In this document: one piece after another, positions 2,699 through 45,522 of the stretch
Position numbering within the stretch: the first letter of the stretch is position 1
Layout of the letters: the number at the start of each line of letters is the position of its first letter
Assembly: GCA_016195385.1 (NCBI GenBank)
Contig: JACPZS010000068.1
Coordinates: 3,919-67,918, forward strand
Length of the DNA stretch: 64,000 nt
Direction: 5' to 3'
DNA from: Verrucomicrobiota bacterium
Lineage (GTDB): Bacteria > Verrucomicrobiota > Verrucomicrobiia > Limisphaerales > JACPZS01
The notes under the pieces: generated by a model
The model's input: only the letters and a program-made list of their open reading frames with translations
What the model was told of the DNA's origin: nothing
The model's database searches: none
Made by a program: the position numbers and the translations under genes

Positions 2699-3619
2699 AT
2701 GAGAAAACAATTTTCGTTTTTAGCTTTTCTCTCTTTCGCTTGGATATGCGCTTTGGTGAGCCAACCGCAGGCGCTACGCGCTCAACACGGCTCTAGTTCC
2801 ATCACGAATCAACCGCCGTCCGTCTCCATTATTTTTCCACCACCTGATGTAATTTTTGGCGGGGCTAGAGTGCGTGTTCGTGCGCGCGCATGGGATCCTG
2901 ACGGTACGGTGGCTGCCGTTCAATTCTACGCCGACGGTCAACTCATTGGCGTCGTTACCAACGAGCCATTCAATTTGGTATGGTTCTTCAATGGTGAGGC
3001 TACTAGCTTGGCGATACTCACTGCCGTTGCTGTGGACAACTTGGGTGTTACGAATACGTCTTCGGGAGTCCGTCTCTTTGGCGTGCAACCGTCACAAGAT
3101 ACTATATTCCGTATTGTAGCCCCCAATGATCCAAAGAAGAACGTCAATGACAGTATCGTGTTGCCGGCAAAGGTCGATATTCTCTTTTCCGCTCGCTTGG
3201 CGACTAGCACCGGGCGAGGTGAGGCAGCCCGCTTTTTCATCGACAACAACTTCGTCGCGGTCGTTGGTGATCCGCCATACCAGATTACCGTAACCAACTT
3301 ATCGGATGGGCCCCATCGCTTGGTGGTTGACACGGAAAATAGTTTTAACCTACCCAATTTTTCGAGTTATGGAGACGGACGGAACATCACGATTGTTCCC
3401 TTGCTAATCCAGCAGGCGCTTACAGACACGAATCACAGTTTTTCGTTCCTCGCCGCTGGCCGCGTGGCGGGCAAGGCGACGGTTATCGAGGCGTCCACGA
3501 ATTTGGTTACGTGGCAGCCTATCGCAACAAACCTCACGAGCACGAATTCTTTCCTGTTCACCGACCCGCAAGCCACCAACTTCTCGCGCCGCTTTTACCG
3601 TGCTTCGTTCACGCAGTAA
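2699..3619 (+). CDS. Secreted protein with tandem Ig-like domains, in a lower-G+C gene
   Basis: Signal peptide MRKQFSFLAFLSFAWICALVS. Repeated PP.VSI..P..GA-type Ig-like segments. C-terminal tail ...NFSRRFYRASFTQ. The gene is visibly more AT-rich than its neighbours. Confidence 0.6.
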   Translation: MRKQFSFLAFLSFAWICALVSQPQALRAQHGSSSITNQPPSVSIIFPPPDVIFGGARVRVRARAWDPDGTVAAVQFYADGQLIGVVTNEPFNLVWFFNGEATSLAILTAVAVDNLGVTNTSSGVRLFGVQPSQDTIFRIVAPNDPKKNVNDSIVLPAKVDILFSARLATSTGRGEAARFFIDNNFVAVVGDPPYQITVTNLSDGPHRLVVDTENSFNLPNFSSYGDGRNITIVPLLIQQALTDTNHSFSFLAAGRVAGKATVIEASTNLVTWQPIATNLTSTNSFLFTDPQATNFSRRFYRASFTQ

Positions 3620-4411: not shown

Positions 4412-5370
4412 TTGCGGGCCGGGCGATCTGGCCGGCGGCATTTGAAAAGAGTGGGGCGGATGTCGCCGGGATAACGGATGCGGCTCAGACCGTTGTTGTC
4501 CGTGGCCAGCCAGATGAACTCGCGATCCACGGCCAGGCCTTCCATCACGCCGACGAGCGGATAGCGCGTGCGGTAAGCGGCTTCTTTGTCGTTTTCGAGT
4601 TCGCGGAAATTGAACTCCGCCAGCACACGATGTGTCGCCGGCTCGATTTGCAGCACGAGGCGGCTTTCGCGCAGCAGGGCGTAGAGCGAGCCATCGAAGA
4701 AGCACAGATCGGAGTAATGCACATCCCAGCCGTCCACGCCGTGGGGAAAAGCCACGAAGTCGTCGATTACTTTGAGGCTCGTGAGATCGACCACAATGAT
4801 GCGGCCAAGGCTGCGCTCGTTGGCGACGTAAAGCTTGTCGTGTCCCACTGCGATGCCTTCAAACGACGCGTTGCGATCGCGGCCGAAATATTTTTTGACC
4901 GGCGACCAGTCGATGTTCAGCCGTTCGACGGAATTCTTCTTCGGGTCCCAGCGAAGTATCCAGCGATTGCCTTCCTCGCAAATGTAAACCCGCCCGGCGT
5001 CATCCTGCGCGATGCCTTCGCAATCCAGATACGTGCCGGGCGCGACGCCCAGGCGCGTCAGTTGCGGCGCGGTGAATGCGTTGGTGAGCAGGACGAGATT
5101 GGCGCCCGTGCCGCGCTCCTGAAACTCGATGCGGTAGAGTGATGGGCCGCGATCATTGATCGTGAGCAAACCGAAGTTCGTGGTGAGCAAAAGGCCCGAA
5201 GCATCGAAACGTTCGCCGCGCGGGGTGTTCAATTGCCAGGTTTGTTCGGCCTTCAAATCGTAGCGATGCCAGTCGTTGGCATTGACGGGGGAAGAAGTAG
5301 TGGCGCAATTCGAGGTCAGGCAAACCGCGCCCAGGATGATCGCGTGTCGTAGCGTGGATAAAAATGTCAC
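4408..5370 (-). CDS. Secreted SdiA-regulated/phytase-like (YjiK-type) beta-propeller protein
   Basis: The probable start is GTG at complement(5368..5370), giving VTFLSTLRHAIILGAVCLTS (signal peptide). The long 521-aa track ORF runs antisense into the gntP-like gene, so I trimmed it. Motifs FEGIAVGHDKLYVANE and MEGLAVD..IWLATDNNG fit the family. Confidence 0.5.
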   Translation of the reverse strand: MTFLSTLRHAIILGAVCLTSNCATTSSPVNANDWHRYDLKAEQTWQLNTPRGERFDASGLLLTTNFGLLTINDRGPSLYRIEFQERGTGANLVLLTNAFTAPQLTRLGVAPGTYLDCEGIAQDDAGRVYICEEGNRWILRWDPKKNSVERLNIDWSPVKKYFGRDRNASFEGIAVGHDKLYVANERSLGRIIVVDLTSLKVIDDFVAFPHGVDGWDVHYSDLCFFDGSLYALLRESRLVLQIEPATHRVLAEFNFRELENDKEAAYRTRYPLVGVMEGLAVDREFIWLATDNNGLSRIRYPGDIRPTLFKCRRPDRPARN

Positions 5371-5475
5371 GCGAGACTTGTAACAGCAAAGTTTCAGGAA
5401 ACAAGCCCGGCTGACTTTGCCGTGAATTGGCGATTGAACCCGTTGTGGCGCTTCGTCATTCTCCGTCCGCAACCC

Positions 5476-31485: not shown

Positions 31486-31966
31486 ACGCGCTTTCGATCA
31501 ACTGGGCGGGTGTCACCAACTCCGGCATCATCAGCCCAAGGCTTTGATTGACGAGGCGAAGATGCTGCACTTTGTTCGGATTGGCAAGATGCTGGCAGTT
31601 CCACGTCAGCACGTAATCGCAGCGGTGGAAGGACGCGACCGCCAGATGCAGTGCATCACCTTCGGGGTCACGCGGCATGGCGCGTCGGGCGATATAATGC
31701 GAAACGAGGCCGAGAACTTCGTCCGTGATTTTCAGCAATGGAATGTCATCGAGCATCGCCAGGGCGGCCTTCGAAAGTGGAAACTTCTCGTCGCGCAACT
31801 CGTCCAGTACGGCGGCGCTCGTCCACAGTTCAAACCGCTGGCGTTGCTCATCCCACCATTGCCGTGTCCAGATTCGTTGTGCCTGCTGCAACGGTCCTGG
31901 GCGTTCCTCCAAGTAAGCGCCGGGGATGGTCGTTTCGATATAGACTCGTTTTTTCGGCGTCATCAT
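31478..31966 (-). CDS. PIN-like domain protein
   Basis: VYIETTIPGAYL resembles a PIN strand-1 acidic motif, and DALHLAVASFHRCDYVLTWNCQHLAN resembles the VapC C-terminal motif with H in place of D. Its start overlaps the flotillin stop by 4 nt (ATGA). Confidence 0.5.
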   Translation of the reverse strand: MMTPKKRVYIETTIPGAYLEERPGPLQQAQRIWTRQWWDEQRQRFELWTSAAVLDELRDEKFPLSKAALAMLDDIPLLKITDEVLGLVSHYIARRAMPRDPEGDALHLAVASFHRCDYVLTWNCQHLANPNKVQHLRLVNQSLGLMMPELVTPAQLIESAYE

Positions 31967-33489
31967 GCCTTTGGTGCCTCATCCTTCCCCATCGCCTTTT
32001 TCAACGCGGGCACCTGCTCCAACAATTTCTCAAACTTCACGCCGGTCAGGCTCTCCAGCACGGGCGGGAGTTGCGCGATGATTTGCGTGATGTCGCCGGT
32101 GAGCTTGCTCGCGCCGCCGCCGGGGCCGGAGCCGGAATTGATGATGACCATCTTCTCCATCTTCGCGAGCGGCTCGCTGATGCGGCCGGCGATTTCCGGG
32201 AGCACCTTGACGAGCAGTTCGATGACGGCGGCCTGGTTGTATTGCTGGAAGGCTTCGGCCTTGAGGCGCGTGGCTTCGGCGGTCGCCTTGCCTTGCGCCA
32301 TGATGATGTCGGCCTGGGCGAGACCCTTGGCCTTGTTGGCCTCGGCCTCGGCGATGCCGGTGGCTTTGTTCACGTCGGCAGCGGCGAAACCCGTGGCCTT
32401 GGTCGCGGAAGCAGAACCAGCGGCTTCGGTCTCGAGCTGGAACTTGCGCGCGTTGGCGAGCGTTTCGACCTTGTAGCGCTCGGCGTCGGCGGGCTTTTGC
32501 ACGTTGGCTTCGAGTTCACGCTGCTTGCGCTGGATTTCCTGCTGCTGCAATTCGATCTGCTTTTGCTTCTCGATGATTTGCACCTGCACTTCTTCGGCTT
32601 TCACGAGCTGGCCGGTTTTGAACTTCTGCAAGTCATACGCGAGGTCGGCCTCGGCTTTCTTCTGGTTCACCGCCGCATTGTATTGCTGCACGTTCGATTG
32701 GTAGTCCCGGCTCGCCTCGGCAATTTTGGTTTCCGCGGCAAATTGAGCTTCCTGTCCGGCTTGTTTGGCTTGCGAGGATTTGATCATCGCGTCGCGGTCG
32801 GCTTCGGCTTGGGCGATTTGCGCGTCGCGTTTTACCTGGGCGATGCGCGGCTTGCCGAGAGCGTCGAGGTAACCCTGCGTGTCGCGGATGTCGCGAATGG
32901 TGAAGCTCACGATGCCAAGGCCCATGTTCGCCATGTCACCGGCGGCCACTTCCTGCACCTTCTGCGCGAAGGCGTCGCGGTTCTGGTAAATCTCCTCGAC
33001 GGTCATCGTGCCGAGAATGGCACGGAGATGGCCTTCCATCGTCTGCATCGCGATGTTCATGATCGCGTTGGTGTCCTTGCTGAGAAATTGCTCGGCGGCG
33101 GTGGCGATGGAGATGTCGTCGCCCTTGACCTTGATTTGCGCCACGCCATCAACTTTCACCGGCACGCCTTTGCTGGTGTAAACCTCGGGCGTCTGCACAT
33201 CGATCGTGAGCAATTCGAGCGAAAGGATGTCCACCTTCTCAATGACCGGGATGACGAACGTGCCGCCGCCCTTGACGATGCGGAAACCGCGGGTCTGCGC
33301 GGTGCCGTCCGGGTCGCGAAACGTGTGCCTGCGACCGGACACGACGAGGACTTCGTTTGGTCCGACCTTCGTGTAGCGGCCCGCCCAGATCGCCGCGAAG
33401 ACGAACATGACGAAAGTGAGCGCGACGACGACGAGAATGATGCCGCCGAGACCAGCGAGATCGAGTGCAAGTATGGGAGTTGGGTTCAT
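31963..33489 (-). CDS. Flotillin (SPFH/band-7 domain, FloT/YqiK-like)
   Basis: N-terminal TM helix, SPFH domain, and a long Ala/Glu/Gln-rich coiled-coil (EAxxK repeats). 508 aa. Confidence 0.9.
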   Translation of the reverse strand: MNPTPILALDLAGLGGIILVVVALTFVMFVFAAIWAGRYTKVGPNEVLVVSGRRHTFRDPDGTAQTRGFRIVKGGGTFVIPVIEKVDILSLELLTIDVQTPEVYTSKGVPVKVDGVAQIKVKGDDISIATAAEQFLSKDTNAIMNIAMQTMEGHLRAILGTMTVEEIYQNRDAFAQKVQEVAAGDMANMGLGIVSFTIRDIRDTQGYLDALGKPRIAQVKRDAQIAQAEADRDAMIKSSQAKQAGQEAQFAAETKIAEASRDYQSNVQQYNAAVNQKKAEADLAYDLQKFKTGQLVKAEEVQVQIIEKQKQIELQQQEIQRKQRELEANVQKPADAERYKVETLANARKFQLETEAAGSASATKATGFAAADVNKATGIAEAEANKAKGLAQADIIMAQGKATAEATRLKAEAFQQYNQAAVIELLVKVLPEIAGRISEPLAKMEKMVIINSGSGPGGGASKLTGDITQIIAQLPPVLESLTGVKFEKLLEQVPALKKAMGKDEAPKA

Positions 33490-33522
33490 AGATTTATTGA
33501 AGTGTGTTTCGTGGAAAAATGC

Positions 33523-34080
33523 TTACGCGGGCGTGACCATGAATTGAGTGCCCGTGCGCGTAATCTTCACGGTCTGGCCGGCGGGAATCGCGGCGCCATT
33601 TTCCGCGCGCGCGGCTGCCGTGTAGCGGGTGCCAGTCTGCACGTAGGCGATTTCCCCAACGCCATTTTCCGGAATCGGCGTGATGATCGTCGCTGTCTGA
33701 CCGACCAGCGACGCGACGTGAGATTCGCTGGAACTTTGCGTCCGGCGAAATGCCTGGTTGAACAGCCACAAAATCCCCGCCGCGATGACGAGCGCGCCGG
33801 CGAAGGCGAGCGGTGCGCTGATGAAAACATTTTTGGTCGCGTCGATATTGGAAAAGACCAGTCCCAGTCCGCCAAACGCCGTGATGAACGAGGCGATGCT
33901 GGTGGGGCTGATCGGCGACATGCCCGGCATCCCGCCGTGATCAAAACCCGCATCGGCGTGTCCGCCGGCGCCAACGCCGCCCGCGTGGACGTCATGCCCG
34001 CCGAAGAGATGCGCGCCAAACGCGCTGATGATGGTGAAGAGCAGACCGACTCCGAAACAAATGAGATAGATCGTTTCCAT
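33523..34080 (-). CDS. NfeD-family membrane protein (flotillin partner)
   Basis: N-terminal TM helices, a Gly/His-rich linker, and a C-terminal OB-fold (GVGEIAYVQTGTRYTAAARAENGAAIPAGQTVKITRTGTQFMV). It lies immediately upstream of flotillin. Confidence 0.8.
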   Translation of the reverse strand: METIYLICFGVGLLFTIISAFGAHLFGGHDVHAGGVGAGGHADAGFDHGGMPGMSPISPTSIASFITAFGGLGLVFSNIDATKNVFISAPLAFAGALVIAAGILWLFNQAFRRTQSSSESHVASLVGQTATIITPIPENGVGEIAYVQTGTRYTAAARAENGAAIPAGQTVKITRTGTQFMVTPA

Positions 34081-34251
34081 AACGTCCTGACTTGAGTTGT
34101 GTGGCCGTAGTAAAGGAGGCGCGCTTTAACCAAGCAAGCTCGAAAGCACCTCGACAGCCAGTTCAATCAGCGTTCCGATTGAATCCAACCAGTCCAAGTT
34201 ACTGAGCAGGTCTTGCCACCACGATGGCTCTTCCGAATTCATTCCACTGCG

Positions 34252-34470
34252 TCAAACGCGCCGCGACCGGCGCACAAAAAAGTAAATGAGCGCGCCGATG
34301 AAATGCGTGAAGACGATGATCAAGATCCAGACGATTTTGTCGTTGCTCTGATTGCTTTCCTTCGTCGCGCAATCCACCAGCATCCAGATCCAAAAAATGG
34401 TTCCGAGCAGGCAGAGCGGGAGAAAGAACAGGAGTGCGAAAATTTCAATGATACCGAACAGACCGAACAT
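34252..34470 (-). CDS. PLD-nuclease N-terminal (PLDc_N) small membrane protein
   Basis: MFGLFGIIEIFALLFFLPLCLLGTIFWIWMLVDCATKE...KIVWILIIVFTHFIGALIYFF. AT-rich gene. Confidence 0.6.
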   Translation of the reverse strand: MFGLFGIIEIFALLFFLPLCLLGTIFWIWMLVDCATKESNQSNDKIVWILIIVFTHFIGALIYFFVRRSRRV

Positions 34471-34767
34471 AAATTTCCTTTCGATAATTGGTTCAAAGTT
34501 CAACTGTCGGCGACATCTTTACTTGGGCGAGCGCGGCGCGTCATTTCCGAAGTCAGCCGGAGTTTGTAATCCGCGCAGAAAAAAGCGACCACGAGCGGCG
34601 GCAGAGTTCGTGATTGCTTCGCCAGTGGCCTGTCTCTATAGCATGGGCCAGCGGAACCGATCCCAATGCCTCGATACGAAGTGATGAACAAACCGGACAC
34701 AACTTCGCCGTTTGTGCGGTGGCTTGCGCCGTCACGACGGAGCAAAGAGCAGGACGGTCGCGCAGCG

Positions 34768-36951
34768 ATGTCTGCCCGACGCGGCAGAAAACTTCCACTG
34801 CTGGGATCGCTGGTCATGGCGATGTGCGCGCTCGTATTCAGCGCCTCGGCCTCGCTGCAGTTCGATGTGTTCCTCGGTTACGACGGGACCATCCGGGAGG
34901 GCGAATGGTTTCCGGTGGCGTGTGAGATTTTGAACGACGGACCTTCGTTCAAGGCCGTGTTCGAGTTTGGCAGCGAATCCGGCGGGCGCACGCAGACGCG
35001 GCGGTTCGCGCTCGAATTGCCGACCAACACCCGCAAACGTTTTTCCATTCCGGCTTTTGCGTCCGCCGGACGGTTCGCGCGCTGGAACGCGCGTTTGCTC
35101 GACGAGCGCGGCCGCGTGCGCGCCGACCGGCCGAATCTGCAAGCGAAGGATCGTCCGTGGGACAGCCCACTGATTGCCGCCATCCCCCGCAGCTTCAACG
35201 GCATGCCGGAACTTCCGAAAGGCGTGAGCCGAACCGACGATTCCGGGCTGGGCGTGCTCCGGCTCATTCCCGATCAATTTCCCGATCACTTGCTCGCGCT
35301 CGAAAGTCTCGACGCACTCTACCTGAGTTCCGAAAAAGCGATCGACCTCAAAGTGAATCAGGTTCAAGCCCTGCTCGCCTGGCTCAACGGCGGCGGGCAT
35401 CTGGTCGTCGCGGTCGAACAACCCGGCGACCTCGCCGGCACTCCGTGGCTGCGCTCGCTGCTGCCGTGCGAATTGAACAGTGTCGTCGCGAAACCGATTC
35501 GCGGCGAGCTTCAGAAATGGCTGACGAGCGAGCGCAACGAAGCGGGGTTGAATTCCAAAACGTTAGCGTCCACCGATTCATCTCCGCGCCGCCGCAACCG
35601 GATGAACGCGCGTGATTCGTCCACGCTCACTGGCGATCCGATTCGCGCGCAGTTACCGGATGAAGCATTCGATCAAGCTGAACTCAGCGTCGCGGTCGGT
35701 TCGCTGCGGGACGGTAAGCCGCTGCTGGAGTTGGACGGCACACCCGCGATCATCCAGGCGCGGCGCGGTCGCGGCTTGGTTACGGTTTTGGCGTTCAGTC
35801 CCGAGCGCGAACCGTTTCGTTCGTGGAAGAACCGGAGTTGGTTTTGGGCAAAACTCCTCGACGTTCCGGCGCATTGGTTCACGCAACCGGACTCCAATCG
35901 CTACGGCGGTGTGAGTCTCGACGGCGTCATCGGCTCGATGATCGACAGCACCCAGGTGCGCAAACTGCCCGTCACCTGGCTGCTCGCGTTGCTCATCGTT
36001 TACCTGGTCGTCATCGGCCCCTTGGATCAATTTTGGCTCAAGCGATTGAACCGGCAGATGCTCACGTGGATCACGTTCCCCGCGTACGTCGCATTTTTTT
36101 CCGGCCTGATTTATTTCATCGGCTACCGGCTGCGCGCCGGCGAAACGGAATGGAACGAGTTGACGATGGTGGACGTGCTACCGCGCGGCCCGCAAGTCGA
36201 ATTGCGCGGGCGCACTTACGCTTCGGTGTACTCGCCCGTGAATGCCCGCTACGAACTGGTCAGCGACCAGCCGTACGCGAGCCTGCGCGGCGAATTTCAA
36301 GGTGCGTGGGCGGGCGGCCTCGAGCAAAGCCGCTCGGCGGTCGAGCAGCGCGTCAATGGCTACCGGGGCGAAATCGACGTGCCCGTCTGGACAAGCCAGC
36401 TTTTCGTGAGCGACTGGTTGCAACCCGGCAACGCGCCATTGACCGCCAAAGCTGTTTCCCGGCGTGGAAAAATCGAAGTGGAAATTTCCAGCGCTTTGAG
36501 CCAGCGGCTGGACGATGTGCGGCTCGCGTTGAACGGCAAAGTTTATCCGCTCGGCGCATTTGCTCCAAACCAGTCGCGCAAAATCACCCTCGACGAAGCG
36601 CAGGAAGGACGCGGCTTGCCGGAACTGCTCAACGCCGCACGTGGTGAATTTAGCAACGCTGTGCAGTATCGTCGCCAGGCGGTGGGGCGGGATATTCGGG
36701 TGGGCAAGAGCGCCGAAAATTTAATCGCCGCGTCCATCGCTTCGCGTCCGGAGGAGATCATCCAGAACGGCCAATTCTTCGTTTCACCGCGCGGCATGGA
36801 CGTTGGTGCGGCAATCGACCGCGGCGAGGCGGTGCTGTTCGCGTGGTCGCGCGAAGGTTCGGTAATCAACCCGGCTTACCGTTTCACCCCCAAACGCTCA
36901 CACCGCGAAACACTGCTCCGCTTGAGCGTGCCACTGACGGCAGCGGATTGA
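34768..36951 (+). CDS. Large hypothetical protein with a signal peptide and two internal TM helices
   Basis: I chose the start at MSARRGRKLPLLGSLVMAMCALVFSASA (track ORF starts at 34666). TM pair around VTWLLALLIVYLVVIG...ITFPAYVAFFSGLIYFIGY. Upstream of an ABC-2-type ATPase. Confidence 0.5.
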   Translation: MSARRGRKLPLLGSLVMAMCALVFSASASLQFDVFLGYDGTIREGEWFPVACEILNDGPSFKAVFEFGSESGGRTQTRRFALELPTNTRKRFSIPAFASAGRFARWNARLLDERGRVRADRPNLQAKDRPWDSPLIAAIPRSFNGMPELPKGVSRTDDSGLGVLRLIPDQFPDHLLALESLDALYLSSEKAIDLKVNQVQALLAWLNGGGHLVVAVEQPGDLAGTPWLRSLLPCELNSVVAKPIRGELQKWLTSERNEAGLNSKTLASTDSSPRRRNRMNARDSSTLTGDPIRAQLPDEAFDQAELSVAVGSLRDGKPLLELDGTPAIIQARRGRGLVTVLAFSPEREPFRSWKNRSWFWAKLLDVPAHWFTQPDSNRYGGVSLDGVIGSMIDSTQVRKLPVTWLLALLIVYLVVIGPLDQFWLKRLNRQMLTWITFPAYVAFFSGLIYFIGYRLRAGETEWNELTMVDVLPRGPQVELRGRTYASVYSPVNARYELVSDQPYASLRGEFQGAWAGGLEQSRSAVEQRVNGYRGEIDVPVWTSQLFVSDWLQPGNAPLTAKAVSRRGKIEVEISSALSQRLDDVRLALNGKVYPLGAFAPNQSRKITLDEAQEGRGLPELLNAARGEFSNAVQYRRQAVGRDIRVGKSAENLIAASIASRPEEIIQNGQFFVSPRGMDVGAAIDRGEAVLFAWSREGSVINPAYRFTPKRSHRETLLRLSVPLTAAD

Positions 36952-37055
36952 CTGCACGAAAAACGGACATGAAAAAATTAACCTTTGTTTCGACCATGAC
37001 TTGGCATTTCCGAGCAGCGCATTCCTCGGTAGCACATGTGATTGACGATCCGTTT

Positions 37056-37270
37056 CACAATCCCAACGGGATTGTGTCTTTCAGCCCAGGGTTGCGAGGC
37101 ACGAGCTACCCTGGGTCTTTCGTGCGAGCGTGTTCAACTCCAACGGAGTTGTGGCAGATCCTGCTCGTCGAACCGCAACCCCGTTGGGGTTGTTGGTTTC
37201 CGGCGCAGTTTCCCAAGGTAGCTCGTGCCTCGCAACCTTGGGCTATGTGCCGGAATCCCGTTGGGATTCC
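37056..37270. repeat. 215-bp hierarchical palindrome made of 6 self-complementary sub-hairpins in 3 mirror pairs about 37163/37164
   Basis: hp1 37056-37076 CACAATCCCAACGGGATTGTG. A 37085-37115 CCCAGGGTTGCGAGGCACGAGCTACCCTGGG. hpM 37135-37151 CAACTCCAACGGAGTTG. hp2 37176-37192 CAACCCCGTTGGGGTTG. A' 37212-37242 CCCAAGGTAGCTCGTGCCTCGCAACCTTGGG. hp3 37252-37270 GGAATCCCGTTGGGATTCC. The centres lie at +/-20.5, +/-63.5 and +/-97.5 nt from the dyad. Confidence 0.8.
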
Positions 37271-37324
37271 AGTCTGGAATTCCCGAAAAGCATTAGCGCC
37301 AGCCAAACAACAGTCCATTTGCGC

Positions 37325-38281
37325 ATGAGCAACTCCACTCCCAATCCCAGCCCGGCCGTGCAAACCTTCGGCTTGAGCCGTGTTTACGGAACGCTCACGG
37401 CCTTGGACAATCTCGACCTCACGATCCACCGCGGCGATTTGTTCGGCTTCATCGGCTCGAATGGCGCGGGCAAAACCACGACATTGCGTATCCTCGCCAC
37501 GTTTCTTTCGCCGTCTGCCGGACGCGCGGAGGTGCTGGGGCACGACGTGGTGAGCGCGGCGGATTCCGTCCGGCACGTCATCGGCTACATGCCGGATTTC
37601 TTCGGCGTGTACAAGGACATGGAAGTCACCGAGTATCTGGATTTCTTCGGCGCGTGCTACAAAATCCCGACCGCACAGCGTGAGAAGACCGTCAACGACG
37701 TGCTCGAACTCGTGGGCCTCAGCGAAAAACGCGGCGCGCTCATCGGCGCGTTGAGCCGCGGGATGCAGCAACGCATCGGCCTGGCGCGCGTGTTGATTCA
37801 CGATCCGCAGGTGCTGCTGCTCGACGAGCCGGCCAGCGGTCTCGACCCGCGCGCGCGCATCGAGATGATGGCGATCTTGCAGGAGCTGCAGCGGCTCGGC
37901 AAAACGATCATCATCTCGTCGCACATCCTCAGCGAACTGCAGACGCTCTGCAATCGCGTCGCCATCATCGAGCGCGGCAAGCTCATCTACAGCGGGCCGG
38001 TGCAGGGCGTGCGCCAACAAATGTCGAGCGGGTTGATCTACTGGATCAAGGTCAACAGCGATGCCGGCCAGGCGCTCGAACTGCTCAAGACCTGTCCGCA
38101 AATCACCGCCGCCGAATCAGTCGATGGCCGCATCAAAGTGACGCTGGTGGATCACGACACGGATCCGAGCAACGTGGCGGAAATCCTGGTGCGCGGTGGT
38201 GCGCGGCTCGTCGAATTCCGCGAGGACGAAGTCGGTCTGGAAAAAGTCTTTCTGCACGTCACGCGCGGCGAGACGCAGTGA
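37325..38281 (+). CDS. ABC transporter ATP-binding protein (ABC-2/DrrA/GldA-like)
   Basis: GSNGAGKTT Walker A, LSRGMQQRIGLARVL signature, LLLDEPASGLD Walker B. I chose the start at MSNSTPNP; the track ORF runs open upstream through the palindrome. Confidence 0.85.
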   Translation: MSNSTPNPSPAVQTFGLSRVYGTLTALDNLDLTIHRGDLFGFIGSNGAGKTTTLRILATFLSPSAGRAEVLGHDVVSAADSVRHVIGYMPDFFGVYKDMEVTEYLDFFGACYKIPTAQREKTVNDVLELVGLSEKRGALIGALSRGMQQRIGLARVLIHDPQVLLLDEPASGLDPRARIEMMAILQELQRLGKTIIISSHILSELQTLCNRVAIIERGKLIYSGPVQGVRQQMSSGLIYWIKVNSDAGQALELLKTCPQITAAESVDGRIKVTLVDHDTDPSNVAEILVRGGARLVEFREDEVGLEKVFLHVTRGETQ

Positions 38282-38366
38282 AGCGTGCTCAGGCAAAATG
38301 TTAGGCATTGAAGTTTCCCCCGAAAGAGTGGACAAGGGGCGGAGAACCCAAGAAAGAAAAACCGCT

Positions 38367-38645
38367 ATGTCCACGACGACCAAAACAAATCGAAAGACCT
38401 ACGACCCTGAGTTCAAGAAGCAGGCCGTGCAGCTGCTGCTCTCCAGCGGCCGGCCCCTGGCCCAGATCGTCCGCGAGTTGGGCGTGCTGTCCTGGCAGTT
38501 GCGCGACTGGAAGCAGCGCCTCCAGCCGCAACTGGCCCAGCAACCCGAGACCCTCGAAGCGATGCGCCGGAATTCGTCGCGGTGGCCGATTTCAACGGCG
38601 GCGCCAAGCCGGCGGTCGCTTGGAGCGACGGCGCACAGCAAGTGA
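38367..38645 (+). mobile_element. IS3-family transposase OrfA N-terminal (HTH) fragment: an IS remnant
   Basis: MSTTTKTNRKTYDPEFKKQAVQLLLSSGRPLAQIVRELGVLSWQLRDWKQRL matches the IS3/IS911 OrfA HTH region. After about 60 aa it degenerates. There is no orfB and no terminal repeats. Confidence 0.6.
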
Positions 38646-38882
38646 CGCTCGAAGGATTCGCGAAGCTGATGGCAGACCTCAAGCCGTTCATCGCGGGGGC
38701 GGGACGGAAGTAGGACGGCGAGTCCGCCAAAAGCCGAGTCCACTGAATCGCGGAGAGCGCGTCCGTTGGACATGGAACGGAAATTTTGCGGCCAAAAATT
38801 TGTTCGCGAACTTAAACCCACGGATGAAGAGGCTTGCTTTGGTCCGCGGATTTTACGAGAAGGTTGTCGGCAAAGGCAGCCT

Positions 38883-40568
38883 ATGACACATCGTGATCGC
38901 CCCTGTGGGGTTTTCAGCAACGCATCGAAATGGATCCTCTGGATTTGTTTCTGCCTGTTGTCGGCGACAAGTTCGCTGCGCGGCACTCCCAATCCTTTTA
39001 CGGCCACCACGACGGATTCGATTTTCTACGAAGTGTTGCCGAAGCCGACTTTCCCGCTAGCCACCGCAACGGTTATTGAGTCATCCCCGCCGCCGTGGCC
39101 GGGCGGCTCGTTGGATCTCGTCATCACGAATGGCTTCCAGCCCGGCGAGGATCATCTCGCAATCGGGGCTTCGGGCGCGAGCTTGATCACGACTGCTCGC
39201 GATCCGGCGACGAATGACTCGTTGATCGTCAGTTTCGCCGGGACGCCATTCGCCACGGCTTCTGGTTTTCTGGCGGCGCAAGATGTGACAGCCGGCGCGC
39301 AACTCCATTGTGTGTTCAACGCGCAAGCGACGACCACGGCCATTCAAGCTCTGCTGCGGCAGCTCGTATTGACGAACGACGTGTTTGGTTTCTCGCTGTT
39401 TGAGACCAACATTACGGCGCACTTTGCTTCGCGCGCGTGTGAGTTTTCCCTTTCGGATGGAACTAATCATTTCGCGACGGCTTCAATCCTGGTCGATTTT
39501 CCTTTTGTCACCGCGATCCGCTGCGTGCCTCAAGTAGTGGTGGTCACTTCAGAAGTGACGGGCATGGTTCGCGCCGAAGCGGAATTCAGCAATCCGCAGA
39601 AAAACACAACCCAGCGCCTTGGTTCTCAAGTGTTATGGTCGGTAACAGATCCCTTTTTTTACACGATTACAAATGATGCGATCCATCTTGAAACAGCCGT
39701 CGTAGGCATCAATCCCCAGCAAACTGGAGCAAATTATACTCCCTCGGCAGACGTAGTCGGCGTGGTGCCCGGCACGGGACTCATGGCGACTGCCTGCATC
39801 AAGGCATACCACACGTATGATTACCACATTTGTTACTTTAGCTTCCTTACTGTCCCCTATAACAACTGCACGGCGTTCTCCAGCCCCGCTTCAGTGGTCG
39901 TCCCGCACGCAGAAGGAAGCAGGTCTCTGCAATCGGTGCCGACTGTCTCATCAGACTTGTTCTCCCTGGCAACCTATCGCGCCTTGGAATCATTGATGAA
40001 CCAGACTGCCGAAGGTCGCCGTCTTGCTGACTTGTACTGGCAGAACACGAGTGAATTAGTGGACATCTTCGTTGCCCATCCTGATTTGATCCCTCAATCG
40101 CTGGCCATCGTGAAAGACTGGGAACCAAGAATCGGTGTGCTGCTCTCAAGTCAAGGCACTAATTCGGTGATCACCGCAGCAATGATTCGCTCCCTCAACC
40201 TGACTTGGAACCGCTTGACGAACTACGCCAGCCCGACGCTGCGGACAAGCCTCATCAACGAGCGGGCGAGGTTTAACAACTTCCAGGACTTCACCGGAAA
40301 AAATCTGGCCGACTGGGCGCAGATGCTTGGATTGCCCGTGCCCAGCCAACCTTCGATTCATCTCTCGCAACCGAGACGTTCCAGCGAAGGCTTCAGCGTC
40401 GAAGCCAACTACATCGGCGGCCTCGGCTATTCGCTGCTTACGAGCCTGAATCTGGCGGATTGGATTCCCGCCAACGGCGTTCGGCTGCTGACAAACGGTT
40501 TGACCTTGAGCCTGACCGATACGAATCCTCCGTCGCCCACCACGTTCTACAAGGTTCAAGCCCGCTAG
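38883..40568 (+). CDS. Secreted hypothetical protein, lower G+C, ending in a C-terminal FYKV-type module
   Basis: Start at MTHRDRPCGVFSNASKWILWICFCLLSATSSLRG (signal peptide); the track ORF starts at 38766. No recognisable catalytic motifs. Tail ...LTDTNPPSPTTFYKVQAR. Confidence 0.55.
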   Translation: MTHRDRPCGVFSNASKWILWICFCLLSATSSLRGTPNPFTATTTDSIFYEVLPKPTFPLATATVIESSPPPWPGGSLDLVITNGFQPGEDHLAIGASGASLITTARDPATNDSLIVSFAGTPFATASGFLAAQDVTAGAQLHCVFNAQATTTAIQALLRQLVLTNDVFGFSLFETNITAHFASRACEFSLSDGTNHFATASILVDFPFVTAIRCVPQVVVVTSEVTGMVRAEAEFSNPQKNTTQRLGSQVLWSVTDPFFYTITNDAIHLETAVVGINPQQTGANYTPSADVVGVVPGTGLMATACIKAYHTYDYHICYFSFLTVPYNNCTAFSSPASVVVPHAEGSRSLQSVPTVSSDLFSLATYRALESLMNQTAEGRRLADLYWQNTSELVDIFVAHPDLIPQSLAIVKDWEPRIGVLLSSQGTNSVITAAMIRSLNLTWNRLTNYASPTLRTSLINERARFNNFQDFTGKNLADWAQMLGLPVPSQPSIHLSQPRRSSEGFSVEANYIGGLGYSLLTSLNLADWIPANGVRLLTNGLTLSLTDTNPPSPTTFYKVQAR

Positions 40569-40656: not shown

Positions 40657-41331
40657 ATGAAAAAATTTGCCGCTGAATTTTTCGGAACCTTCGCCCTCGT
40701 ATTCGCCGGGACGGGTGCAATCATCATCAATCGGGTCAGTGGCGGCGCTGTCACACACGTGGGCGTGGCGCTGACGTTCGGGCTGGTCGTGCTGGCGATG
40801 ATTTACGCGCTGGGCGATGTATCCGGCGCGCATTTGAACCCCGCCGTGACGCTTGGATTTTTCGCGGCACGACGCTTTGAAGGCCGGCTCGTGGCACCCT
40901 ATGTCGCGAGCCAGACGGCGGGCGCGTTGCTGGCCAGCGGCGTCTTGCGGTTTCTGTTTCCCGGCAACCAAACTTTGGGGGCGACGTTGCCTGCGGGTTC
41001 CGCAATGCAATCTTTCATTTTGGAAATTATCCTCACGTCGCTGCTGATGTTTGTCATTCTCGGCGTCTCGACCGGCGCGAAGGAAAAAGGCATCACCGCC
41101 GGTGTTGCCGTGGGCGCCGTCATCGCGTTTGAGGCGCTTTTCGCCGGGCCGATTTCCGGCGCGTCGATGAATCCCGCCCGCTCATTCGCGCCAGCAATTG
41201 TCAGCGGCCATCTTGAACAGCTTTGGGTTTATCTCACCGCGCCGATTCTCGGTGCGCTGCTGGCCGTTCCCGGCTGTCGCTGCGTGCAGCCGGCCGGTTG
41301 TTGCGTGCGCGCCCAGGCCGGAACCTGCTGA
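40657..41331 (+). CDS. MIP-family channel (aquaglyceroporin-like), probably an arsenite channel given the adjacent arsC
   Basis: Two NPA boxes (HLNPAVT and SMNPARS) and six TM helices. An unusual Cys-rich C-terminal tail, [20 protein letters not shown]. Confidence 0.85.
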
Positions 41332-41815: not shown

Positions 41816-41998
41816 TCAGTTAAACTTGTTCTTCCGATACGCGCCCACCGCGGGGGCGTTCGGGTTCACTTCGGGGCCGAAGTAGCGCAGCGTCACGAGC
41901 GGTTCGGTTTCGCTGGTGTTCTCGAAGGTGACGCCGGCCTTCGCGTCGTGGTTCGGGAGCAAATGATTTTCGTCGGTCATGATTTTGATGCGCGGCAC
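41816..41998 (-). pseudogene. Diverged duplicate of the 3' end (last ~55 codons) of the gene at 42632-43857
   Basis: DAKAGVTFENTSETEPLVTLRYFGPEVNPNAPAVGAYRKNKFN matches GAKAGVTFENTSETEPLVTLRYFGPEVNPDAPAMGAYRKNKF. About 88% nucleotide identity. It abuts the ORF6N gene stop. Confidence 0.6.
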
Positions 41999-42564
41999 TA
42001 TTTCCCTTCTCGTTTCGGTTTGTCATTACGAAAGCCAATCAGCCGCCGGCCTTCCGGGTAGGCCCAACTGGAGGTTTCCTCAAGTTGATGCAACGCGGCA
42101 AAGATAGTTTGGATATCCTCGCCTTGGAGCTTCTGCGACTGTTCCAGTTCGGCGAGTTTGCGGCCCAGCGCCTCGTAACGACCGGCCTCCCGGCGCAGCG
42201 CGACGAAGGCGCGCATGATTTCGACGTTGACCAGCACCGCGCGCCGGCTGCGCAGCACGCTCGACAGCATGGCGACGCCCTGCTCGGTGAAGGCGTAGGG
42301 CAGAAATTTCCGGTGCCGCCCGCGTCCGGCCTTTAAGATGCCAGTTTGGCATCTTAAAGAATCCAGCTCATCGGCGGTGAGTTGGAACATGAAGTCGGTG
42401 GGAAACCGCTCGCGGTTGCGTTTCACGGCGCGATTCAAAGCGCCGGTGGACACGCCGTAAATGCGAGCAAGGTCCGAGTCGAGCATCGCACGCTCGCCAC
42501 GAAGCGCGTGAATCAACGGCTCGACTGGTTCGAGCTTCACAATGGGCTGTTTCTTCTTTGCCAT
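41998..42564 (-). CDS. ORF6N-domain (phage antirepressor/KilA-N-like DNA-binding) protein
   Basis: MAKKKQPIVKLEPVEPLIHALRGERAMLDSDLARIYGVSTGALNRAVKRNRERFPTDFMFQLTADELDSL is the ORF6N signature. Trimmed to the ATG at 42564. Confidence 0.7.
   Translation of the reverse strand: MAKKKQPIVKLEPVEPLIHALRGERAMLDSDLARIYGVSTGALNRAVKRNRERFPTDFMFQLTADELDSLRCQTGILKAGRGRHRKFLPYAFTEQGVAMLSSVLRSRRAVLVNVEIMRAFVALRREAGRYEALGRKLAELEQSQKLQGEDIQTIFAALHQLEETSSWAYPEGRRLIGFRNDKPKREGK
42331..42359. promoter_or_regulatory. Perfect 13-3-13 palindrome CTTTAAGATGCCA-GTT-TGGCATCTTAAAG inside the ORF6N coding region
   Basis: It is related to the two palindromes at 42565-42638. It creates the spurious MPNWHLKG ORF starts in the track. 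Confidence 0.6.
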
Positions 42565-42631
42565 GTTTAAGGTTCCAATTTGGCACCTTAAAAACTGCAC
42601 ACCAATTCCTTTAAAGTCACAAACTATGACC

Positions 42632-42638
<7 letters not shown>
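42565..42638. promoter_or_regulatory. Two operator-like palindromes immediately upstream of the ORF6N start
   Basis: GTTTAAGGTTCCA-ATT-TGGCACCTTAAAA at 42565-42593 abuts the start codon. CTTTAAAGTCA-CAAACTA-TGACCTTAAAA lies at about 42608-42638. Confidence 0.55.

Positions 42639-43857
<1,219 letters not shown>

Positions 43858-45445: not shown

Positions 45446-45522
<77 letters not shown>

Follow-up and report, generated by a model that had tools for sequence, protein, structure and literature searches.

The DNA analysed here is a 64,000-nucleotide stretch of contig JACPZS010000068.1 from a bacterium of the phylum Verrucomicrobiota (assembly GCA_016195385.1; hereafter the window), in which an imperfect palindrome of 212 nt lies between a gene for a 761-aa protein and a gene for an ABC transporter ATP-binding protein. 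A first-pass annotation of the window had offered three readings of this palindrome: an attenuator or riboswitch in the leader of the ATPase gene, an element resembling miniature inverted-repeat transposable elements (MITEs) or repetitive extragenic palindromes (REPs), or an operator array for a transcription factor. Our analysis indicates that the palindrome is very probably a non-autonomous mobile DNA element of the REP/REPIN type (REPINs being REP doublets that form hairpins), built from two inverted units of ~105 nt and linked to a Y1 transposase. It is not a regulator of the ABC transporter gene.

A repeat search of the window recovered a pair of 57-nt inverted arms (37059-37115 / 37212-37268, 84% complementary) and an inner inverted pair (37135-37154 / 37173-37192), with a common centre at 37163.5. 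Six hairpins lie symmetrically around this centre at +/-20.5, +/-63.5 and +/-97.5 nt, reproducing the mirrored arrangement described in the first-pass annotation. They form two units, each with hairpins in the order A-B-C, whose C hairpins face each other:

37058..37269, no strand: whole doublet, two inverted three-hairpin units, REPIN-like; two profile matches; on either side the family boundary coincides with the first base of the A stem
37058..37155, + strand: left unit, C.G subtype; three hairpins as single-stranded DNA (ssDNA)
37058..37074, + strand: hairpin A, CAATCCC-AAC-GGGATTG; 7-bp stem that covaries family-wide
37075-37078, + strand: tail TGTC after hairpin A of the left unit
37085..37115, + strand: hairpin B; holds the 21-mer GGTTGCGAGGCACGAGCTACC at 37090-37110
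37135..37151, + strand: hairpin C, CAACTCC-AAC-GGAGTTG; covarying stem, the window copy being the rarer T.A variant
37152-37155, + strand: tail TGGC after hairpin C of the left unit
37156..37171, no strand: central spacer between the two C hairpins; 16 nt, non-conserved, 4/12 identical across the dyad
37172..37269, - strand: right unit, G.C subtype; hairpins A' 37253-37269, B' 37212-37242 and C' 37176-37192
34666..36951, + strand: upstream gene, 761 aa, no Pfam match (context, not part of the element)
37325..38281, + strand: ABC transporter ATP-binding protein, PF00005 at E = 1.9e-28 (context, not part of the element)

When the left half is compared with the reverse complement of the right, the hairpins are well matched (A 16/21, B 29/31, C 15/17 identical positions) and the spacers stand at about the chance level (3/8, 3/19 and 4/12), with zero indels between the halves. 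Every difference in a stem is compensated within its unit, as had been claimed. Since the hairpins have stayed constant while the spacers have randomised, the palindrome is not a decaying simple inverted duplication. The extent first assigned to it, 37056-37270, is correct in its core and slightly too wide at its ends: the outermost pairs then given to hairpin A (37056-57 with 37075-76) join non-conserved flank to the conserved tail and, at alignment columns 8-29 and 9-28, are not maintained in the family described below.

RNA folding of the region gave -140.6 and -133.7 kcal/mol on the two strands (z = -12.2 and -11.8 against dinucleotide shuffles), with long-range pairing in the minimum free energy structure. 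Folded as ssDNA, each unit forms exactly three local hairpins (z about -4 to -4.7). A profile of the unit, built from the wider family, matches the window at 37056-37160 (+, 89.7 bits) and 37171-37271 (-, 85.0 bits), and the window doublet is a typical, well-preserved family copy. Repeat and profile searches found no second copy of the element within the window.

A family of three-hairpin units

To ask whether the element occurs elsewhere, as the first-pass annotation had proposed, we used the 21-mer of hairpin B for an exact search of a genome collection of 596 Gb, in which ~0.3 chance occurrences are expected. The search returned at least 120 stretches with the 21-mer, spread over at least 87 assemblies. 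Almost all of these assemblies carry the label Verrucomicrobiota, and among them are Limisphaerales, Pedosphaera, Chthoniobacterales, Akkermansiaceae and Verrucomicrobiaceae. The largest number in one fragmented metagenome-assembled genome (MAG) was 9 loci with 18 units; long-read MAG contigs of 2-4.6 Mb held one or two exact-match loci each, among the matches listed. Many matches sit at contig ends, as expected because repeats break assemblies. An exact search of viral contigs did not find the 21-mer, and a full-text literature search found no paper carrying the 17-mer of the B loop. Some carriers (among L014, L020, L037, L051, L053, L056, L011, L016, L073, L080, L086 and L091) bear labels such as Bifidobacterium, Klebsiella, Acidobacteria, Proteobacteria, Haliangiales and Anaerolineae; these are likely labelling or binning problems, the alternative being horizontal spread.

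The profile, built from 131 distinct units and searched in 121 sources, detected 241 units, with two or more in 91 of the 121 sources. Among 100 adjacent unit pairs, 93 were convergent (+ then -), 4 divergent and 3 tandem, and the gap inside convergent pairs was mostly 5-25 nt. The preponderance of convergent pairs makes the doublet, rather than the single unit, the usual form, and some units are solitary. Several loci depart from the standard layout. In L052 and L082 the C hairpins of the paired units abut with almost no spacer (for example CAACCCTGAAGGGGTTGCGCAACCCCTTCAGGGTTG), so the central spacer of doublets is dispensable. L026, at about 3179-3295, has hairpins A and B with an inverted A-type hairpin (CAATCCCGTTGGGATTG) directly after them and resembles an internally deleted doublet, and L058 (OY969777.1, 4277-4816) carries two direct-orientation units 426 nt apart in identical surrounding sequence, which looks like a local tandem duplication.

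Across the family the unit is ~105 nt long. Hairpin A has the consensus [C/G]AATCCC-AAM-GGGATT[G/C], that is, a 7-bp stem and an A-rich 3-nt loop, followed by a YRKC tail. Hairpin B begins ~8 nt past A and has a stem of 12 bp in which a T.T mismatch is conserved, with tandem G.A/A.G pairs in its apical part. A variable stretch of ~20 nt separates it from hairpin C (consensus CAACCCC-AAC-GGGGTTG), which ends in a tail similar to that of A. On its own strand each unit has loops that read AAC, AAA or GAA, and this strand asymmetry points to recognition of one strand. No conserved 5' GT[AG]G tag stands at the foot of hairpin A, where information content is about 0; GTAG is present only within the B stem, on the opposite strand. 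We also considered CGTC-tagged REPs, in which the tag is 5' of the stem, AT occupies the first stem positions and loops are 4-5 nt long (PMC3733652), and rejected this family for the present unit, whose YRKC tail is 3' of the stem and whose loops are 3 nt long.

The first-pass annotation had inferred selection on hairpin formation from the two halves of the window palindrome, and the family bears this out. We counted covariation on a hand-set structure over a 131-sequence alignment, RNAalifold on the MAFFT alignment having given a poor, partial structure because of gap columns. Stem cells were paired in 96.4% of cases, compared with 89.8% when partners were shuffled and 25-50% when the structure was slid by 1-3 columns. 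Cells with both partners changed numbered 208, against 56 +/- 5 in shuffles, and 15 of the 25 pairs had changes on both sides. The outer pair of hairpin A, for instance, is G.C in 52 units, C.G in 44, A.T in 8 and T.A in 6, and A pair 13-23 is T.A in 91 and C.G in 36. Such exchanges also occur at B pair 51-74 (G.C 99, A.T 22), at C pair 119-132 (C.G 115, T.A 10) and at another C stem pair (C.G 114, G.C 8). Hairpin formation is clearly under selection in this family.

Wobble pairs were not enriched over A.C mismatches: the counts of G.U and A.C were 80 and 88 over all tallied column pairs, three non-stem pairs included, and about 54 and 43 in a hand tally of true stems, where a single loop-closing position accounts for 21 of the G.U pairs. 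Typical structured RNAs behave differently, and the counts agree with a constraint acting on DNA without proving it; by either tally the test is uninformative about an RNA strand signal.

Unit subtypes also account for the differences between the halves of the window palindrome. Heterodimeric doublets that join a C.G unit to a G.C unit numbered 44 against about 25 expected, and homodimers 11 against about 25. Because doublets preferentially pair the two subtypes, the differences between the window halves are inherited subtype differences. Three of the four compensated differences coincide with pairs that are polymorphic in the family (the A outer pair, B 51-74, at which the right-unit B' has the A.T variant, and C 119-132), and the fourth is the outermost pair once assigned to hairpin A, which the family does not keep. 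The substitutions are thus compensated, as first described; they did not evolve in place and instead separate two pre-existing unit subtypes.

Units are intergenic in 136 of 140 exact-match cases, and their orientation to genes is random. Flanking gene pairs were tandem in 68 cases, convergent in 23 and divergent in 16, and the neighbouring genes are unrelated from locus to locus. Immediately beyond hairpin A, at either end, information content falls to about 0 and there is no target motif, and none of 81 doublets had direct flank identity of 4 nt or more, the mark of a target-site duplication (TSD). Spacers of loci from the same assembly were more alike than those from different assemblies (0.47 vs 0.37, p about 1e-19), as expected if copies multiply within genomes. 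The polarity of heterodimers relative to the direction of transcription was not significantly biased (15 vs 7).

A Y1 transposase linked to the units

To identify genes associated with the repeat, we clustered the open reading frames (ORFs) of the 120 loci. One family was always within about 400 nt of a unit. Its 151-aa product contains an HUH motif (HVH) as well as a conserved tyrosine region, and its sole Pfam match is Y1_Tnp (PF01797, E = 9e-21); NCBIfam transpos_IS200 (NF033573) matched exactly at its cutoff, with no other match in that database. A PDB sequence search returned weak matches to the ISDra2 and IS608 TnpA proteins (E 0.004-0.045); E. coli TnpA-REP was not among the matches at E <= 1. 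By tblastn the gene is present in 10 of the 120 repeat-selected loci, plus one remnant; ~90% of repeat loci thus lack it, and tblastn found none in the 64-kb window. The gene is bracketed by inverted units in several arrangements:

L091, compact, about 683 bp: unit (+) 4749-4857, gene 4876-5328, unit (-) 5326-5431
L109: doublet, gene, doublet
L033, L014 and L097: doublet, gene, unit (-)

We then ran the reciprocal test, selecting loci by Y1 homology alone. Five protein homologs on long contigs led to six loci, four of which do not contain the exact 21-mer, and in all six the gene was directly adjoined by units or doublets. In total, Y1 genes are flanked by structured units at 16 loci. The Y1 proteins fall into two clades with 60% mutual identity, and each clade occurs with its own unit subtypes; L091 and L025 carry AATC/CATC tails and C hairpins with GAA loops, and L076-type loci carry CGTC/TGTC/CGGC tails and AAC loops. 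This small sample hints that enzyme and repeat may co-vary. Each Y1 locus comes from a separate assembly, and the loci share little synteny.

Many Y1-like proteins already carry the label 'REP element-mobilizing transposase RayT' from the pipeline of the Joint Genome Institute, an annotation that loosely anticipated the protein side of the system. Database calls of the Y1 ORF (P0121-P0240) are often extended N-terminally through the upstream repeat, to 160-258 aa compared with the 151-aa core; the ORF that we called at L025 19-717, for example, includes the repeat-derived peptide '...IQPRVARHELPWE...'. These extensions are an annotation artefact that the repeat produces.

The system is closest to the known partnerships of REPs and REPINs with REP-associated tyrosine transposases (RAYTs) in Proteobacteria (Nunvar 2010; PMC3116915; PMC3333891). 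As in those, the repeats are extragenic, dispersed and palindromic, with compensated stems and without TSDs; the predominant form is an inverted doublet able to fold as a single long hairpin; and, as in a REPtron, the Y1 HUH gene lies between inverted copies of these repeats. Preferential heterodimers have been reported for several REP families (PMC3733652), and in that preference, as in favouring tandem and convergent junctions, the present doublets resemble REPs. In contrast to the single 20-40-nt hairpin of a REP, however, the unit here comprises three hairpins over ~105 nt and has no unpaired 5' GT[AG]G tag; the enzyme motif is Y---Q--HH (class 1), whereas class 2 RAYTs have Y---NP; and sequence is conserved across several orders rather than within a genus or family.

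On the protein side, the signature of TnpA-Y1 subclass 1.2 is DH[IV]H, WQ and YIKNQKEHH, with a median length of 148 aa and a 30-aa tail (PMC6006769, Table 1). The protein described here reads EDHVHLL, EWQGGY and QYIAGQEEHH, with the corresponding DHVH, WQ and YIAGQEEHH signatures, a length of 151 aa and a ~30-aa C-terminal tail (HHRKIGFQDELRALLRKHEIEWDEKYVWD) that is conserved between the two clades. The match to subclass 1.2 is by this motif signature only. That subclass is listed without REPs and generally without IS200-type terminal structures, mostly from Cyanobacteria and Bacteroidetes (PMC6006769), whereas the present gene is carried by Verrucomicrobiota and consistently has structured repeats on its flanks.

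Three other systems share part of this design. TIRtrons, with their TIRYT enzymes, combine a Y1 gene and long inverted repeats unrelated to GTAG REPs with dispersed dimer families, and some of their repeats are self-complementary and form moderately abundant families (PMC3733652). TIRYTs are, however, mostly of subclass 2.1, about 238 aa long with a C-terminal helix-turn-helix, which the 151-aa protein lacks, and the terminal inverted repeats (TIRs) of TIRYTs carry a GGGGWSAS motif that is absent from the unit consensus. IS200/IS605 insertion sequences and their PATE-type derivatives likewise have a Y1 HUH transposase, hairpins at their ends and no TSD; an ssDNA mechanism would be expected for both, and the compact L091 is IS200-sized. 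The ends of those elements lack symmetry, both hairpins lying on one strand, and the whole element, tnpA included, is what is repeated. Here the unit on one flank of the gene is an inverted copy of that on the other, and doublets without the gene are far more numerous than copies with it; for these two reasons the system is not IS200/IS605 in the strict sense. Bacterial interspersed mosaic elements (BIMEs) of E. coli and BOX elements of S. pneumoniae are similarly modular, mosaic and extragenic, with hairpin modules in a fixed order, but neither is related in sequence; BOX has no linked Y1 gene, and BIMEs combine REPs of the GTAG type with defined linkers. Extragenic palindromic doublets associated with a Y1 protein are established biology; what sets this system apart is its module of three hairpins, a hairpin B that stays constant throughout the phylum, and an enzyme of the subclass-1.2 type.

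Mobility, alternatives and the ABC transporter locus

Recognition of hairpins on ssDNA, followed by cutting and rejoining, is established for IS200/IS605 TnpA and for E. coli TnpA-REP (PMC3333891, PMC3479197, PMC8266576). By analogy, the Y1 enzyme would recognise the hairpins of the unit on ssDNA and cut and rejoin the strand, so that doublets could be excised and inserted, with the doublet as the propagating unit. Elements whose stems stay paired would go on being copied, which would yield compensated stem changes; we propose that such changes are maintained because the enzyme needs to recognise the hairpins. The window doublet has inserted in the short junction between two genes that are probably co-transcribed. 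If the ATPase gene is affected at all, for instance by a very stable hairpin that acts as a barrier or stabiliser in read-through transcripts, this would be an incidental by-product.

Several points weigh against a REP/REPIN-type mobile element. The case for mobilisation by the Y1 protein is one of association, and the window itself holds no Y1 gene. The unit has neither the GT[AG]G tag nor the small size of classical REPs, and the enzyme motifs are of class 1, not of class 2 as in RAYTs. The copy number per genome may be modest. The pairing counts, with G.U no more frequent than A.C, fit a DNA element without amounting to proof. Finally, the near-identity of hairpin B over several orders exceeds what selfish spread alone would be expected to leave, and a host-level role may be involved. 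On this last point one may consider, tentatively, an ancient, vertically kept partnership of the three-hairpin unit with a subclass-1.2-like Y1 protein across Verrucomicrobiota, in which hairpin B is nearly invariant because of a host-level function and not only through selfish transposition. Such a partnership is possible but doubtful on present evidence. If it existed, the unit would be the first repeat partner of a TnpA-Y1 subclass thought to have none, and the pair might serve the host, for example, in processing ssDNA at replication forks or in structuring the genome.

The alternative that fares best gives the doublet a host-adopted structural role as a bidirectional transcription barrier, an mRNA 3'-end stabiliser or a site for a nucleoid protein, with host function rather than transposition maintaining the doublets. 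The almost invariant hairpin B over several orders suits this idea, as do the extremely stable hairpin that any read-through transcript would contain and the preference for tandem and convergent junctions, which is shared with REPs that have such roles (PMC3733652). The hairpins are, however, not followed by a U-tract, polarity relative to transcription is not significant (15 vs 7), and close relatives do without the window copy. Taken alone, moreover, host adoption leaves the tight link to the transposase unexplained. We consider it unlikely as the force that maintains the doublets, although it is compatible with a mobile REP/REPIN-type element as a secondary role.

A further reading, in which the ABC-2 ATPase gene has a cis-regulatory RNA in its 5' leader that switches between six local hairpins and one long hairpin, draws on position, since the element ends 55 nt upstream of the start codon, and on a very stable RNA fold with covarying stems and long-range pairing. 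We looked for the element in relatives. The window ATPase has a 100% identical database protein (P0001) and many close orthologs. At four orthologous loci (L121-L124) and on one further contig the ATPase is 85-93% identical, with orthologs of the 761-aa protein (52-69% identical) encoded directly upstream. The intergenic gaps there are 70, 12, 29 and 169 nt, compared with 373 nt in the window, of which the doublet makes up 212, and no unit was found at these junctions, at the four loci or on the contig, at E <= 1. Because it is missing from these tight orthologous junctions, the doublet is a lineage-specific insertion and not a conserved leader; this comparison had been suggested as a test of a MITE-like insertion, and the orthologous regions are too diverged to place the insertion point at base level.

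Other observations point the same way. The element lies beside unrelated genes in both orientations, and also between convergent genes. In a leader, one half would be the sense copy of the unit and the other its antisense copy. G.U pairs are not enriched over A.C. An Rfam 15 scan gave no match for the region, either at gathering thresholds (whole window, where a single match was a tRNA elsewhere) or at E <= 10 (36900-37400), and a scan of 36850-37400 found no σ70-like promoter and no U-tailed intrinsic terminator. The attenuator or riboswitch reading is thus largely refuted, and we regard it as very improbable.

Hardly better placed is the classical MITE reading, by which the element would derive from a DDE-type insertion sequence through internal deletion and a DDE transposase would bind its TIRs. 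A length of about 212 bp, inverted ends, lack of coding capacity and dispersal all fit, but no TSD was found in 81 doublets, the only recurrently linked gene encodes a Y1 HUH transposase, conservation resides in internal covarying hairpins rather than in linear TIR sequence, and single units also occur alone. The MITE/REP-like label of the first-pass annotation therefore stands in its REP-like half and requires refinement in the other. As for an operator array through which a dimeric transcription factor would control the ABC operon (NaTCCC-N3-GGGAtN), four short palindromic sites with a common consensus and fixed spacing do recall one, yet stem bases change in compensated fashion with structure kept even within one genome and one doublet, which would not be expected of a fixed protein-contact sequence, the loops are asymmetric (AAC/AAA/GAA on one strand), and the sites are absent from the orthologous promoter regions and dispersed beside unrelated genes in both orientations, so that the distribution has already refuted an idea whose chance we put at next to nothing.

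For the window, a tempting riboswitch or attenuator interpretation of an ABC transporter is removed and the covariation is explained without a local RNA function. More broadly, the results describe a REP/REPIN-like system in Verrucomicrobiota made from unusually long three-hairpin modules, which, if confirmed, would widen the known range of domesticated or semi-domesticated partnerships between HUH transposases and repeats. Three covarying hairpins with sharp ends offer a defined substrate for studying how Y1 enzymes read DNA structure. A model of the repeat would also improve the annotation of Verrucomicrobial MAGs, where these repeats break assemblies and over-extend transposase ORF calls.

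A few features of the surrounding genes were noted. Downstream of the ATPase gene, two overlapping ORFs (38308-38886 and 38766-40568) have no Pfam match, and tblastn found no similarity between the ORFs of 38308-40568 and the ABC2 permeases that follow the ATPase ortholog in L123. Further on, a MIP-family channel gene (40657-41331, +), a gene with an ORF6N domain (41998-42672, -) and a tRNA gene (45446-45519, +) lie close together, and the ORF6N gene near the tRNA could be a remnant of an integrated element. Upstream of the doublet, two large ORFs within 31738-36951 (785 aa and 761 aa) are without a Pfam match, and the 761-aa one is conserved and syntenic with the ATPase gene.

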